A stretch of 13,313 nt of DNA from a virus (taxonomy: Duplodnaviria > Heunggongvirae > Uroviricota > Caudoviricetes), in IMG/VR virus record IMGVR_UViG_2703718794_000005. One strand, given 5' to 3'. Below are positions 1,479 to 11,704 of this stretch, piece by piece; the first letter of the stretch is position 1; every line of letters begins with the position of its first letter. The notes beneath the pieces are model-generated. The model was not told where the DNA came from. It saw only the letters and a list, made by a program, of their open reading frames with translations, and did no database searches. Position numbers and translations under genes: made by a program.

Positions 1479-1530
1479 TTTTTTTCGTGTTTTTTCAGTA
1501 TGCGCATACTGGATAAGTGCACAGATACAA

Positions 1531-6599: not shown

Positions 6600-6848
6600 A
6601 ACAGAAAAACCAGAGATAAGACAGCGCCAAAATATAAAGCGTTAGACATGACAGAGCACGCTTTAAAGGTGGCAATCAGAACGATAGACCGCCACGCGGG
6701 GGAAGGATACGCGAAAGAACATCCCGACCTGATAAGCGCATTCATGACCACAGCAGCGGCAAACTTTGCCACGCTGACAGAACGTGAGATTGCCGAAGCG
6801 GAACAGGTAACAACCATCAACGTTAAAACCGGAGAGGTGGAATCATGA
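6597..6848 (+). CDS. Hypothetical protein (83 aa)
   Basis: ATG 6597 uses last iteron (GGGGA) as SD; stop overlaps SSB start (ATGA); charged helical composition. Confidence 0.55.
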   Translation: MNRKTRDKTAPKYKALDMTEHALKVAIRTIDRHAGEGYAKEHPDLISAFMTTAAANFATLTEREIAEAEQVTTINVKTGEVES

Positions 6849-7267
6849 CAGCACAGATAGCCGCTTACGGGCGGCTGGTGAACGACCCGCAGGTAAAACA
6901 GACCAGCAAGGGCACACCGATGACGCTGGTTCGTATGGCGGTATCGCTGCCATGCAGCCAGGCACAGGACGGACAGGCGACGTTATGGCTGTCCGTCATC
7001 GCATTTGGCAAGCAGGCCGACTTCCTGGCTAAACATCAAAAAGGCGACGTTGCCAGCGTATCCGGCACGATGCAGGTAAGCCAGTGGACAGGCCAGAACG
7101 GCGAAACGCGGCAGGGCTGGCAGGTTATCGCAGACAGCGTAATCAGTGCGAGAACGGCGCGACCGGGCGGCAAAAAAGGCCAGCAGGGGCAGGCTACTGA
7201 CGCACTGAACAGGGCAAAACAACAGGCGGGTAACGATGATCCGTACGGGGATAACATACCGTTTTAA
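6845..7267 (+). CDS. ssb: Single-stranded DNA-binding protein (SSB-like, OB fold with acidic DIPF-type tail)
   Basis: 140 aa; N-terminal OB-fold-like region (AYGRLVNDPQVKQTSKGTPMTLVRMAV..), Gly/Gln-rich linker, C-terminal DDPYGDNIPF resembling the SSB C-terminal DDDIPF tail. Confidence 0.8.
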   Translation: MTAQIAAYGRLVNDPQVKQTSKGTPMTLVRMAVSLPCSQAQDGQATLWLSVIAFGKQADFLAKHQKGDVASVSGTMQVSQWTGQNGETRQGWQVIADSVISARTARPGGKKGQQGQATDALNRAKQQAGNDDPYGDNIPF

Positions 7268-7283
7268 GCAACGAGTGACAGAA

Positions 7284-7305
7284 GCCGGAGCAATCCGGCT
7301 TTTTT
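7284..7305 (+). terminator. Intrinsic terminator (gccgga-gcaa-tccggc + T6)
   Basis: 6-bp GC stem, 4-nt loop, 6 T; 17 nt after SSB stop. Nearly identical hairpin recurs at 9725-9747. Confidence 0.7.
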
Positions 7306-7354
7306 ACGGGTCCTCCTGGCGGGGTGGGCCTGAACACGGGGCGGAGGGGCGCGG
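7306..7354 (+). other. Degenerate cos-like element (cosQ-like ACGGGTCCTCCTGG; cosN analogue GGGCGGAGGGGC at 7339-7350)
   Basis: Aligns with cos1 (9748-9794): terminator hairpin + ACGGGTCCT..GG + ACGGGGCGG; 12-mer differs from GGGCGGCGACCT at 4 positions. Confidence 0.4.
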
Positions 7355-7487
7355 AAAAAAGCGCATTTTTGTGGTTTTATCGTCATCATCATCATGAGCG
7401 TAATTTATTGTTTTTAATTGTTTTGATGCAAAAAAGATGATGGTTGTGGTTAATTTTCGTTCGACATCTTTGCAGGCAGATAAAAAA

Positions 7488-7523
7488 GCCCGATAAGGTC
7501 AGAGGAAACCTATCGGGCTTTTG
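7488..7523. terminator. Hairpin with flanking A-run and T-run (gcccgata..tatcgggc), possible bidirectional terminator
   Basis: 8-bp stem 7488-7495 / 7511-7518, 15-nt loop, aaaaaa upstream and ttttg downstream. Confidence 0.35.
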
Positions 7524-7600
7524 CATATGAGGTTTTTTTGGTGCACTGACACACATGATCGGGATAATCATTTCATAATTTGCAACACAACTCAACATCA

Positions 7601-7661
7601 TTGCACAAAATGCAATCATGATTATAATCATAACTGGATGAACATCCAGTTATGATTTTTT
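7601..7661 (+). promoter_or_regulatory. Candidate promoter of the head operon (TTGCAC 7601-7606, 16 bp, TATAAT 7623-7628) embedded in nested palindromes (7618-7631 and 7628-7655) followed by T6
   Basis: Palindrome atgattataatcat covers the -10; perfect 13-bp-arm palindrome tcataactggatg-aa-catccagttatga spans predicted +1; SD agagga 10 nt before ATG 7685. Confidence 0.45.
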
Positions 7662-7684
7662 AAGTCAAAGAGGAATTTCTGACT

Positions 7685-7891
7685 ATGGCAGAAGAGAAAA
7701 AAGGCGGGGTGACCGTGTACATAAGCCCCGACATCGTGGAGGCGCTCAAGGAACGCCACCAGCAGAACGTAAAAGCAGGCATCGCGGCAGGACTTGATCC
7801 GCTGGCGATGGTTGAGCCGTCAACAGGCTGGCAGGTACGCGCCTATTTACGCGCGGCGCTGGGCATGAATCAGACGCATGGAGGTGAATAA
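7685..7891 (+). CDS. Hypothetical protein (68 aa), translationally coupled to major capsid gene
   Basis: SD agagga; stop TAA overlaps ATG of next gene (TAATG, 7889-7893). Confidence 0.55.
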   Translation: MAEEKKGGVTVYISPDIVEALKERHQQNVKAGIAAGLDPLAMVEPSTGWQVRAYLRAALGMNQTHGGE

Positions 7892-8946
7892 TGGCAGGCA
7901 AAGCAACGGCACTTAACACTAACCAGCTTTTCGCGTACCTGAATCGCGGGGATATTGCGGAATTTAAATTCAGTCCGCTGTTTACCACGCTGTTTTTCCC
8001 GAACGTGGCGACATTCAACACCCAAAACATCATGCTGGACACCCTGGACATTGAAGAGGTTACGATGTCGGCGTTTTGTTCGCCTATGGTGGGTAGTCAG
8101 GTCCAGCGCGATAAAGGGTACGAAACCAGCACGATTAAACCTGGATACATGAAGCCGAAGCACGAAATCGATCCAACGAAAACCATCATGCGCATGGCCG
8201 GAGAAGATCCGGCACAGCTTAACGACCCTACCTATCGCCGTATGCGCCTGATTACTGGCAATATGCGCCGCCAGGTAAACGCCATAAAAGCGCGCGTGGA
8301 ATGGCTGGCGGTAAATGCGGTAACGACCGGAAAAAACATCATTGAGGGCGAAGGCATAGAGCGCTATGAAATCGACTGGAAGATACCGGAAAAAAACATC
8401 ATAGAGCAGGCCAAAGGCCGTAAATGGTCAGAGCAGGACAAAGAAACTCACGATCCAATCTATGATATTGAGCTTTATGCGGATCAGGGCAATTGCCCCG
8501 CAAACGTCATGATTATGGGCGCTGAGGTATGGCGCACGTTACGCAGCTTTAAAAAATTCCGCGAACTGTACGATCTTTCCCGTGGTTCAGAATCCGCCGC
8601 AGAACTGGCCTGCAAAAACCTGGGCGAAGTGGTGAGCTTTAAAGGCTATCTGGGCGATATTGCCCTTATCGTCTATTCCGGCAAATACACTGACAGCGAC
8701 GGCACCGAAAAATATTTCCTTGAGCCTGATTTGCTGGTCCTGGGCAACACCAACAATAAAGGGCTGGTGGCCTATGGTGCGATTATGGAACAGGAAGCGG
8801 TAAGAACGGGCGCAACGCAAAACATGTACTACCCGAAAAACTGGATTGAGGACGGCGATCCGGCGATTGAGTACGTGCAGACACACAGCGCACCGCAGCC
8901 GGTACCGGCAGATATTCGCAAATTTGTTACCGTCAAAATTGGTTAA
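7891..8946 (+). CDS. Major capsid protein, lambda gpE family
   Basis: 351 aa; blocks FKFSPLF..LFF, KPGYMKPKHE, DPTYRRMRLI, HDPIYDIELYA, RSFKKF, RGSESAAE, LGEVVSFKGYLGDIALIVYSGKY, FLEPDLLVLGNT, YPKNWIEDGDPA, SAP..AD..KFVTV align with lambda E protein as I recall it. Confidence 0.9.
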   Translation: MAGKATALNTNQLFAYLNRGDIAEFKFSPLFTTLFFPNVATFNTQNIMLDTLDIEEVTMSAFCSPMVGSQVQRDKGYETSTIKPGYMKPKHEIDPTKTIMRMAGEDPAQLNDPTYRRMRLITGNMRRQVNAIKARVEWLAVNAVTTGKNIIEGEGIERYEIDWKIPEKNIIEQAKGRKWSEQDKETHDPIYDIELYADQGNCPANVMIMGAEVWRTLRSFKKFRELYDLSRGSESAAELACKNLGEVVSFKGYLGDIALIVYSGKYTDSDGTEKYFLEPDLLVLGNTNNKGLVAYGAIMEQEAVRTGATQNMYYPKNWIEDGDPAIEYVQTHSAPQPVPADIRKFVTVKIG

Positions 8947-8957
8947 CGGGGGATTCT

Positions 8958-9293
8958 ATGGACACTCCATACATTGAGTTATTCGCAGGCAGTCAGCAGG
9001 TCGCCACGACGCTGGTACATTTTGCCGCTGATGCTGGCGTTATTCAGGAATTTACCCCGCTGATGCTGGCGGACAATGGCGAGTTTAAGCCGTGGGATGG
9101 TCAGGAATCTGGCAAGGCTGTTTATCTGACTTCGTACCCCGTGGACACGTCGACGCAGAAATCAGCACAGTGTTACAAGACGGGGATATTTAATATCGCT
9201 GCCGTAAACTGGCCTGAGAGCGCCGACACTGACGCGAAAAAATGCGCTGCCTTTGCGGGGTCTGGCGTATCCGTTCAGCCGCTGGCCCGATAA
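8958..9293 (+). CDS. Head decoration protein, lambda gpD-like
   Basis: 111 aa; TPLMLAD..WDG..YKTGIF..WPESADTDAKKCAAFAGSGVS matches remembered lambda D ([36 protein letters not shown]). Gene order E then D is reversed relative to lambda. Confidence 0.8.
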   Translation: MDTPYIELFAGSQQVATTLVHFAADAGVIQEFTPLMLADNGEFKPWDGQESGKAVYLTSYPVDTSTQKSAQCYKTGIFNIAAVNWPESADTDAKKCAAFAGSGVSVQPLAR

Positions 9294-9305
9294 GCAGGGG
9301 GAACG

Positions 9306-9719
9306 ATGGCAACGAATGAAAGCATCATGACGCTACCGCTGGCGAGTAAATTTAAAGCCGAAGCGCGGGCAATGGCTGACAGAGGGTTATCAACCTACGA
9401 GGCCATATATCAACTTAACAAACTGGAAGAGCAGGACAAGCCGCGCGCTGATGCGATTATGGCGCTTGATGAATCTGGCGACTATCAGCCGCTGTTACGT
9501 GCAATGGCAAACGTGCCTTGTATCGATGTTGGTACGGCTAAAAGCATCCTTAGCATGACCATAGAGCAGGAACGTCCGAAGGTTGCGCCGGAGCTTACCG
9601 CAGCCTTTGAAAACTTTATGGACATGCACAGCCCGCAAGCCGTATCAGCTGGCATGGCATACGATGGCAGAAACCCGGGCGATGACGGCGACATCGATCG
9701 CATACTGAAAACCATCTGA
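9306..9719 (+). CDS. Hypothetical protein (137 aa) within head module
   Basis: ORF with SD gggggaacg; acidic C-terminus; no recognisable homolog from memory. Confidence 0.6.
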   Translation: MATNESIMTLPLASKFKAEARAMADRGLSTYEAIYQLNKLEEQDKPRADAIMALDESGDYQPLLRAMANVPCIDVGTAKSILSMTIEQERPKVAPELTAAFENFMDMHSPQAVSAGMAYDGRNPGDDGDIDRILKTI

Positions 9720-9830: not shown

Positions 9831-9924
9831 GTGGTGGTTTTGTTGTTCGCTCTATCTCTATGAATAAAAAGGGAAAGATAAAAACAATACACCAACCTGA
9901 AACATTACTTAAGTGGGGATATTG

Positions 9925-10467
9925 ATGAAATCGCACCTGATGAACAAAAAAAACATGGCGCAAAGCTGCCGTGTAAGTGCGACAGCGTTCGACAAGTGGC
10001 GAGTGACTCCCGTTGAACGTAAAGGACGCGAGGCTTTTTACGATGTTGCCAGCGTGATAGACAATCGGGTAAGCAATGCAATTAACCAGGTTACAAACGA
10101 CAAAGGCGAGATTGATGATGATGAACTCTTACGAGTCAGGATCAGATTACTGACCGCCCAGGCGGAGGCGCAGGAACTTAAAAACGAGCGCGATCGCGGT
10201 GACGTAATTGATACAGAGTTTTGCATGTACGCGCTTTCAAAACTGGCGAGCCAGATTTCTTCAATCATGGACAGCCTACCGCTTACGATGCAAAGGAGCT
10301 TCCCACAGATTACCCCCGCCATGCTGGATGGGCTTAAAAGGGAAGTGGTTAAAGCCTGTAATGCCAGTGCCAGAGTTGCCGACAACCTTCCGCAGATACT
10401 GGCTGATTACTTGAAAGAAACTACCGGAAACGTACCGGAAAAGTTGCTACAGAAGAAACGTGAGTAA
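9925..10467 (+). CDS. Small terminase subunit, lambda Nu1-like (TerS; could act as a packaging-redirecting TerS homolog)
   Basis: Central block LTAQAEAQELKNERDRGDVIDTEFCMYALSKLASQISSIMDSLPLTMQRSFPQ..LKREVVKACN aligns with lambda Nu1 (LTRAQADAQELKNARDSAEVVETAFCTFVLSRIAGEIASILDGLPLSVQRRFPE..LKRDIIKAMN). ATG 9925 has SD gtgggga; ORF track starts at GTG 9913; ATG 9940 also possible. Confidence 0.85.
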   Translation: MKSHLMNKKNMAQSCRVSATAFDKWRVTPVERKGREAFYDVASVIDNRVSNAINQVTNDKGEIDDDELLRVRIRLLTAQAEAQELKNERDRGDVIDTEFCMYALSKLASQISSIMDSLPLTMQRSFPQITPAMLDGLKREVVKACNASARVADNLPQILADYLKETTGNVPEKLLQKKRE

Positions 10468-11413: not shown

Positions 11414-11704
11414 AGCGAAAAATTCTGATTAAGGTCACTGGCTGAATGGTCATAATGACCACGCAGACCATCAAGGCAACCATAGCGATCATCGTTACGG
11501 TTGGAGCTTTTCCGCCATTGGTGGAAAAGGTGCACATCTGGATCATCATTACGGTGATCAAGGGTATGTAAAACCCACCAGCCTGATTAAATGTTAACCG
11601 GAAAAAAATCCGGTAGCCCCGTTATGGGGATCCCCATATCGACATTAACGCCCCTCATGAATTGGTGCGCTTCCCCCTGGAAAGATTACCCGCCTGTATA
11701 TTTC

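Follow-up and report, generated by a model that had tools for sequence, protein, structure and literature searches.

The head genes of the satellite described here are preceded by a promoter whose predicted start lies within a long perfect palindrome followed by a run of T residues, and the question arises what this palindrome is for. The initial annotation had considered that it could be an operator for a repressor or for a helper-encoded activator, or alternatively a terminator or attenuator for read-through from upstream, and had taken either case as a hint that the head genes are tightly gated. Here we weigh these readings using the sequence of the element, its conservation in related islands and published expression data.

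The satellite and its head unit

The window, that is, the whole stretch of 13,313 nucleotides that was analysed, is an EcCICFT073-type phage-inducible chromosomal island (PICI), a chromosomal phage satellite. According to Pfam and PHROG matches, its genes code in this order for an integrase, an AlpA-type HTH protein, a RepA-type helicase, an SSB, a 68-aa protein, an E-like capsid protein, a D-like decoration protein, a 137-aa protein and a Nu1-like (Rpp-type) protein. The integration site roxA/phoQ is common to the window and to EcCICFT073, the prototype of the Gram-negative PICIs, which belongs to the same island family and in which the genes of the head unit are c1498–c1501. EcCICFT073 has a primase and a PerC gene, whereas the window has instead the RepA-type helicase and a cos-like segment. 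Islands of this family are found in hundreds of genomes, for example, in CFT073, Nissle-derived strains, ATCC 25922 and O157:H7. E. coli 2013C-3181 is 100% identical to the window, and over 700 complete genomes of E. coli contain the block from position 7482 onward. CFT073 is identical to the window from 7608 to 7685, and the sequence of the promoter, the box and the hairpin described below is the same in both islands. The coordinates of the features are collected in Table 1.

Table 1. Features of the head unit and of its upstream region (positions in the window)
Feature	Position	Strand	Remarks
T1, intrinsic terminator downstream of SSB, GAAGCCGGA-GCAA-TCCGGCTTTTTT	7281–7306	+	Fold -19.3 kcal/mol, z = -4.5; found in relatives
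cos-like segment between T1 and T2	7301–7471		86–90% identity to phage DNA
Intrinsic terminator T2, A6-GCCCGATA...TATCGGGC-T4	7484–7524	+	Inverted repeat; bidirectional in shape
Distal repeat TTTCA-N5-TGCAA, degenerate copy of the proximal dyad	7571–7585		Direct repeat; centre at about -58
Proximal dyad TTGCA-N5-TGCAA	7601–7615		Single occurrence in the window; overlaps -35 and spacer; centre at about -27.5
-35 element TTGCAC	7601–7606	+	3/6 match to consensus, TTG kept
14-nt perfect palindrome ATGATTATAATCAT around TATAAT	7618–7631		Probably incidental
-10 element TATAAT	7623–7628	+	6/6; no change among 50 E. coli-type variants
Extended inverted repeat, 15-nt arms, terminator-like hairpin in this lineage	7626–7657	+	
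Candidate LexA (SOS) box AACTGGATGAACATCCAGTT, core of the large palindrome	7632–7651		HI 6.98
Predicted transcription start	7635–7637	+	7–9 nt past -10; from geometry only
T6 run TTTTTT (U-rich tract of the leader or terminator tail)	7656–7661	+	Kept in all lineages except L096/L097
Ribosome-binding site AAGAGGA	7668–7674	+	Invariant across alignments
Head unit, corresponding to c1498–c1501	7685–9719	+	4 genes; Pfam/PHROG matches; co-regulated in CFT073
68-aa protein, first gene of the head unit	7685–7891	+	
Lambda E-like capsid protein	7891–8946	+	
D-like decoration protein	8958–9293	+	
137-aa protein	9306–9719	+	

The 68-aa product (PHROG 3255) is restricted to these islands. Its AF2 model consists of a beta-hairpin and two helices (pLDDT 77), and searches with this product gave no match to a PDB structure with E < 1 and no Pfam match. 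For the 137-aa protein (PHROG 1999) a weak match was obtained with profiles of head maturation proteases, namely with their C-terminal part (phrog_53, positions 494–567), which by analogy with lambda Nu3 we suspect to be scaffold-like. If this is the case, the island would carry genes for a capsid protein, a decoration protein and perhaps a scaffold, with neither a portal nor a large terminase. In RefSeq the Nu1-like gene (9913–10467) carries the annotation of a pseudogene, a small terminase with a frameshift; its counterpart in CFT073 is c1503, which is not co-regulated with c1498–c1501. No Rfam family matches anywhere in the window. An open reading frame on the minus strand (7392–7631, 79 aa) was discarded, as it crosses the terminator T2 and DNA that is replaced in related islands.

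Upstream of the head unit, the cos-like segment is similar to unannotated DNA of Stx-converting phages that immediately precedes their small terminase gene. In a similarity search against phage DNA this segment gave matches and the promoter block did not. The PerC-type islands (CFT073, O157, O145) lack the cos-like segment; here T1 and T2 abut and are preceded by a gene of the PerC family. T2 is conserved throughout the E. coli variants, and the distant relatives have a comparable GC-rich terminator at the same position. Within the cos-like segment there are two direct repeats (7355–7376 and 7430–7451), 75 bp apart and both ending in TTGTGGTT, which are possible satellite-specific cosB (R) elements.

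The promoter and the candidate LexA box

A scan of the region 6800–8000 for sigma-70 promoters called no promoter, because the -35 element TTGCAC matches the consensus at only three of six positions. The comparison with relatives is more informative. The spacer between TTGCAC and TATAAT is 16 bp long, and TTGCNN is found exactly 16 bp upstream of the -10 element in all eight lineages despite the drift of the spacer sequence; the -10 element itself reads TATAAT in five of the distant lineages and TAAAAT in two. This fixed spacing is good evidence for a genuine sigma-70 promoter. In addition, the Shine–Dalgarno sequence upstream of the head unit is kept in all lineages.

Both palindromes that had been noted at this promoter are present. 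The second one is even larger than noted: the 13-nt arms TCATAACTGGATG and CATCCAGTTATGA (7628–7640 and 7643–7655) are perfectly complementary and can be extended to arms of 15 nt (7626–7640 and 7643–7657), which are 2 nt apart and form a 32-bp palindrome followed by the T6 run. No other perfect inverted repeat in the window has arms as long, and in 100 random 13.3-kb sequences generated with a Markov-1 model the longest arm was 8.4 nt on average and 13 nt at most. The placement of the predicted start within this palindrome is likewise supported, and the promoter is conserved.

The smaller palindrome around the -10 element is a different case. A palindrome of at least the same length occurs in 59% of the random sequences; when only the 121-nt AT-rich region is considered the probability is about 0.02, and the self-complementarity of ATTATAAT helps to explain the palindrome. 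Its outer pair varies freely among the E. coli-type variants, it is not conserved in the lineages L089, L093 and L100, and Salmonella, Edwardsiella and further relatives have lost it. This palindrome is probably incidental and appears to be a side effect of the -10 hexamer and the bases next to it. Three perfect palindromes of 16 nt are found elsewhere in the window (1496–1511, 2753–2768 and 11623–11638).

The core of the large palindrome resembles the binding site of the SOS repressor. LexA boxes of Enterobacteria have the consensus TACTG(TA)5CAGTA (PMC6590174), and the importance of the CTG and CAG triplets has been described (PMC9621596). The candidate box has a CTG-N10-CAG core (7634–7649, CTGGATGAACATCCAG) and shares the half-sites CTGGAT...ATCCAG with the ruvA box CGCTGGATATCTATCCAGCA (PMC3009722 Table 4). 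We calculated the heterology index (HI) with a matrix derived from 18 published E. coli boxes of one table (PMC3009722) and not with the original Lewis matrix. The HI of the candidate box is within the range of proven boxes, as the 18 known boxes have leave-one-out values of 0.6–12.8 (ruvA 8.5, cho 7.9, recA 7.4). None of 200 random 13.3-kb sequences contained a site as good as HI 6.98, and the expected number of sites per random 13.3 kb is 0.01 at HI ≤ 7 and 0.05 at HI ≤ 10. When 49 kb of CFT073 DNA were scanned, the box was the sole site with HI ≤ 10. With respect to the TTGCAC-16-TATAAT promoter and its predicted start the box spans approximately positions -4 to +16. The box is comparable to those of ruvAB and cho in its 16-bp core, in its half-sites, which are identical to those of ruvA, and in its HI, and it overlaps the predicted start. 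On the other hand, the ruvAB and cho boxes control repair genes, whereas the candidate box belongs to a mobile satellite and in this lineage lies within a perfect palindrome of 32 bp followed by a T-run.

Further LexA-like sites are found near the integrase gene. One of them lies in the spacer between int and alpA (1618–1637, AGCTGGTTTTTTATACATTA, HI 6.66) and has the form CTG...CAT; the homologous position in CFT073 (L103, 6789–6808) reads TACTGTTTTTTTATACACTG with HI 5.66, and the flanks are diverged. A terminator hairpin (1665–1693) is located downstream, and the arrangement might mark a short SOS-controlled transcript. A third site with CTG-N10-CAG is found just past the integrase gene (1507–1526, TACTGGATAAGTGCACAGAT); its HI of 12.4 is borderline, with 0.41 sites of HI ≤ 12.5 expected per 13.3 kb, and it is deleted in CFT073.

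Upstream of the candidate box the promoter region contains the two TGCAA repeats. The proximal dyad is nearly invariant in the 50 variants, and TGCAAT within the spacer is invariant in all eight lineages. The distal repeat is kept in most distant relatives, and the conservation starts here where the DNA upstream is unrelated. This onset at about position 7566 is abrupt even when the DNA further upstream is unrelated, so that the regulatory block belongs to the head module. The conservation of both repeats, which are located at about -27 and -57, implies that a further regulator acts on the promoter.

Several candidates for the TGCAA repeats were considered. The motif was searched for in the whole window including the region upstream of alpA, and it was not found elsewhere. 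Lambda CII (TTGC-N6-TTGC) does not fit: on inspection of the aligned relatives the second repeat reads (A/G)TGC in every case, and the distance between the repeats is not the required one. CytR operators have the published half-sites AYGTGCAAC-N10-13-GTTRCATT, to which the arrangement ATTTGCAAC-N13-ATTGCACA found here is similar, and Pluralibacter has the exact half-site GTTGCATT. The likeness of the half-sites is real. However, a CytR operator needs flanking CRP sites, and near the promoter no CRP site with fewer than three mismatches is present, which is the chance level; in addition, the proximal dyad is oppositely oriented and there is no obvious biological rationale, so that we take the likeness to CytR operators as a lead only. 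A role of the 68-aa protein as a ribbon–helix–helix autoregulator acting on the repeats is unsupported, as its AF2 model has no recognisable DNA-binding fold. It is also unlikely that the repeats are cosB R elements for Rpp-TerS, because the block travels with the head genes also where PerC and not cos is found upstream.

Operator or terminator

In order to follow the element in relatives we used three sets of sequences. The first set comprises 80 IMG/VR loci and seven loci from complete E. coli genomes, which yield 50 distinct versions of the region 7530–7700; the second set consists of six variants from E. coli genomes; and the third set contains islands whose 68-aa protein is 55–88% identical (Salmonella, Pluralibacter, Edwardsiella and other assemblies). 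A scan of genome contigs with the capsid protein yielded no confirmed relative, and the IMG/VR loci and look-ups of exact proteins were used instead. The metagenome contig L101 was left out, as it is apparently riddled with indels.

The LexA box is kept in 87 of the 88 E. coli-type loci (HI 5.2–9.2) and in four of the six informative diverged lineages. In each of the loci of about 5 kb from Salmonella, Pluralibacter, L095 and L096 the box is the sole site with HI ≤ 10.5, and it is always located 47–56 nt before the ATG. The box of L096 and L097 (CTGTATATAAATTCAG) is nearer to the consensus (HI 5.5 and 4.4), contains a T.T mismatch and is no longer self-complementary, and the T-run is lost. The variants with C7646A have a broken stem pair and have gained the consensus ACAG, and in L102 the box is kept and the lower stem is destroyed. 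Among the 20 positions of the box, those that carry more information in the LexA motif tend to vary less (Spearman rho = -0.65, p = 0.0017). The conservation of the element follows the rules of a LexA site and not those of a hairpin. In two lineages, Edwardsiella L093 and L100, the promoter is kept and the LexA box is absent, which means that LexA does not control this promoter throughout the family. A peculiarity is found in Pluralibacter gergoviae (L091, 2420–2480), where an insertion of 16 nt, apparently a partial duplication (AACTGAATTTTT before AACTGGAT), shifts the LexA box and the T-run wholly downstream of the predicted start and leaves the promoter intact.

Alternatively, intrinsic termination or attenuation on the plus strand could be the main function of the large palindrome and the T-run, directed against transcription from the replication, SSB and cos side or from the PerC side, so that the head genes would be read only from their own promoter or only by an antiterminated polymerase. 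This proposal fits only the E. coli lineage. A terminator scan called 7626–7657 terminator-like on the plus strand (14 pairs, a loop of 4 nt, a T-rich tail), the RNA folds with -17.7 kcal/mol (z = -5) and the T-run is present in seven of eight lineages. Moreover, the lower stem outside the LexA core shows pair-preserving changes: the pair 7631/7652 occurs as T-A, C-G, G-C and T.G and the pair 7632/7651 as A-T, G.T and G-C, and every wobble fits the RNA of the plus strand. The covariation score is 0.083 compared to 0.068 for shuffles, and 6 of 500 shuffles score as high. However, this level is in the range that the tool documents for related, unconstrained sequences, and template-switch correction in quasi-palindromes could mimic compensatory change. 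Of the 14 pairs of the stem only 4 are G-C; the U-tract consists of six U, two of which are within the stem. A G.A mismatch at 7631/7652 is found in 21 of the 50 E. coli variants, and two strong GC-rich terminators are already present upstream. Outside the E. coli lineage the proposal fails: the hairpins of distant relatives are about as stable as shuffled sequences (z = -1.5, -1.5, +0.3, -0.1 and -1.8), and in L102 and L096 the stem is lost but the LexA box is kept; in L096 and L097 the lost T-run and broken stem go along with an improved box. We consider it unlikely that the element is mainly a terminator; it appears to be mainly a repressor operator, for which termination, if it occurs at all, would be a secondary role confined to one lineage.

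It has also to be considered that the palindromes and the TGCAA repeats are operators for a regulator encoded by the satellite or by the helper, either a repressor or a late activator, and that the likeness to LexA boxes is coincidental. The conservation of the dyad and of its upstream copy across lineages at about -27 and -57 points to such a regulator, as do the weak -35 element, which suggests factor dependence, and the temperature induction in CFT073 without an SOS response (see below), which requires another input. But the repeats are separate from the large palindrome, which would be left unexplained; the motif is present nowhere else in the island including the region upstream of the autoregulated alpA; and the head module is found in combination with unrelated modules for replication and regulation, which speaks against a regulator whose gene lies elsewhere in the island. 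The 68-aa product, for its part, shows no recognisable DNA-binding fold. The helper-encoded activator proposed initially finds no support; to our knowledge, lambdoid helpers use Q antitermination and not late activators. In addition, the statistics of the LexA box make a coincidence very unlikely, and we give this explanation little credence. Even less probable, to the point of being nearly negligible, is that the locus mimics a lambdoid late promoter (pR'-tR') with a promoter followed by a terminator and read-through by a polymerase that is modified by the Q protein of the helper or by a similar factor. In favour of this, the promoter is followed by a hairpin and a T-run with late-type (head) genes immediately behind them, in Pluralibacter (L091) the predicted start precedes hairpin and T-run entirely, and the helper is lambdoid judging from the cos similarity. 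Antitermination of the Q/AlpA type needs a factor-binding element between -35 and -10, a -10-like pause element and a downstream terminator (PMC9371919). In E. coli, however, the predicted start is inside the stem and the transcript would lack the left arm, no -10-like pause element is conserved early in the transcript, as the sequence past the -10 element varies more than any other part of the region, and at the DNA level the promoter block is not similar to late promoters of phages. The AlpA of P. aeruginosa is structurally similar to the Q protein of phage 21 (PMC9371919); the AlpA of the satellite was dismissed as a Q-like antiterminator, as it is a 62-aa excisionase-type HTH protein unlike P. 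aeruginosa AlpA and no pause element is conserved.

Thus, of the functions that had been proposed for the palindrome the operator for a repressor is the best reading, and sequence and evolution point to the host LexA protein. We consider it likely that the operon of the capsid homologue is transcribed from its own sigma-70 promoter and that the core of the large palindrome is an operator for LexA. The exact start site, the binding of LexA and the induction by the SOS response are inferred by us from these observations.

Expression of the head unit and its proposed control

Published RNA-seq data of CFT073 after a shift from 23 to 37°C (PMC12890032 supplement) allow the head unit to be compared with its neighbours. 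The log2 fold changes are +2.24 for c1498, +2.05 for c1499, +1.45 for c1500 and +1.17 for c1501, whereas the primase (+0.31), c1496 (+0.36), the SSB (+0.24) and the downstream gene c1503 (+0.33) hardly respond. As c1498–c1501 change together and the flanking genes do not, these data support that the four genes are a separate transcription unit which starts in the intergenic region before c1498. The PerC gene that adjoins the head unit of CFT073 (L098, 463–2497) shows a similar rise, which is non-significant.

In the same data sulA, dinI and umuD are unchanged, and the head unit is induced 4-fold. Induction without a change of SOS genes means that LexA is not the sole control and that repression is not absolute. 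Candidates for the input that is independent of LexA would be the TGCAA repeats or an H-NS-type silencing of the region, which has 69% A+T. The suggestion that the head genes are tightly gated is plausible; however, the unit of CFT073 is expressed and rises at 37°C without SOS induction.

According to our proposal, in an undamaged cell a LexA dimer would sit on the start site (approximately -4 to +16) and would block RNA polymerase. Upon DNA damage RecA is activated and LexA cleaves itself, which is the same signal that induces the lambdoid helper prophage. With LexA cleaved the operon for the 68-aa protein, the E-like capsid protein, the D-like decoration protein and the 137-aa protein would be transcribed. 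In this lineage the T-run and the additional arms of the palindrome may have the further effect of halting transcription that comes from upstream. It is conceivable, if rather doubtful, that the 32-bp palindrome has two full jobs, namely as DNA the LexA operator and as RNA, together with the T-run, the terminator of upstream transcription, and that a second regulator at the TGCAA repeats adds a temperature or physiological input. The capsid genes would then have a two-key gate which is independent of the AlpA switch triggered by the helper, and the capsid genes of the satellite would be readable from the SOS-gated promoter only.

A similar logic is known from the staphylococcal islands: LexA controls operon I of the SaPIs, the module for packaging and capsid morphogenesis (PMC5052747). 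By analogy, the satellite described here may also have an operon of the head and packaging side under direct SOS control. In both cases the helper activates replication functions of the satellite by a separate route, which involves Stl in the SaPIs and AlpA here. Nevertheless, host, LexA motif and genes are unrelated, with cpmAB and terS in the SaPIs and lambda E-, D- and possibly Nu3-like proteins here, and the Rpp gene, which is located downstream of the head unit, appears to be outside of the unit. The likeness is convergent logic and not homology.

The induction of the EcCICFT073 family has so far been attributed to AlpA that is triggered by the helper and has been described as independent of SOS. 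In the published work on EcCICFT073 the expression of alpA was independent of SOS, and c1499 and c1500 were without phenotype. In the accessible literature on EcCICFT073 neither this promoter nor its control by LexA is described, and LexA appears only in the title of a SaPI reference; as far as we can tell, LexA control of this promoter has apparently not been described before. If the LexA operator is real, it would predict the timing of head-gene production and would provide a handle on the function of these genes by means of lexA(Def) strains, mitomycin C and operator mutations. Furthermore, antibiotics that induce the SOS response would affect gene expression of the satellite even without a helper phage, and satellites of Gram-negative bacteria would sense the SOS response directly as the SaPIs do, having arrived at the same regulatory logic by convergence.
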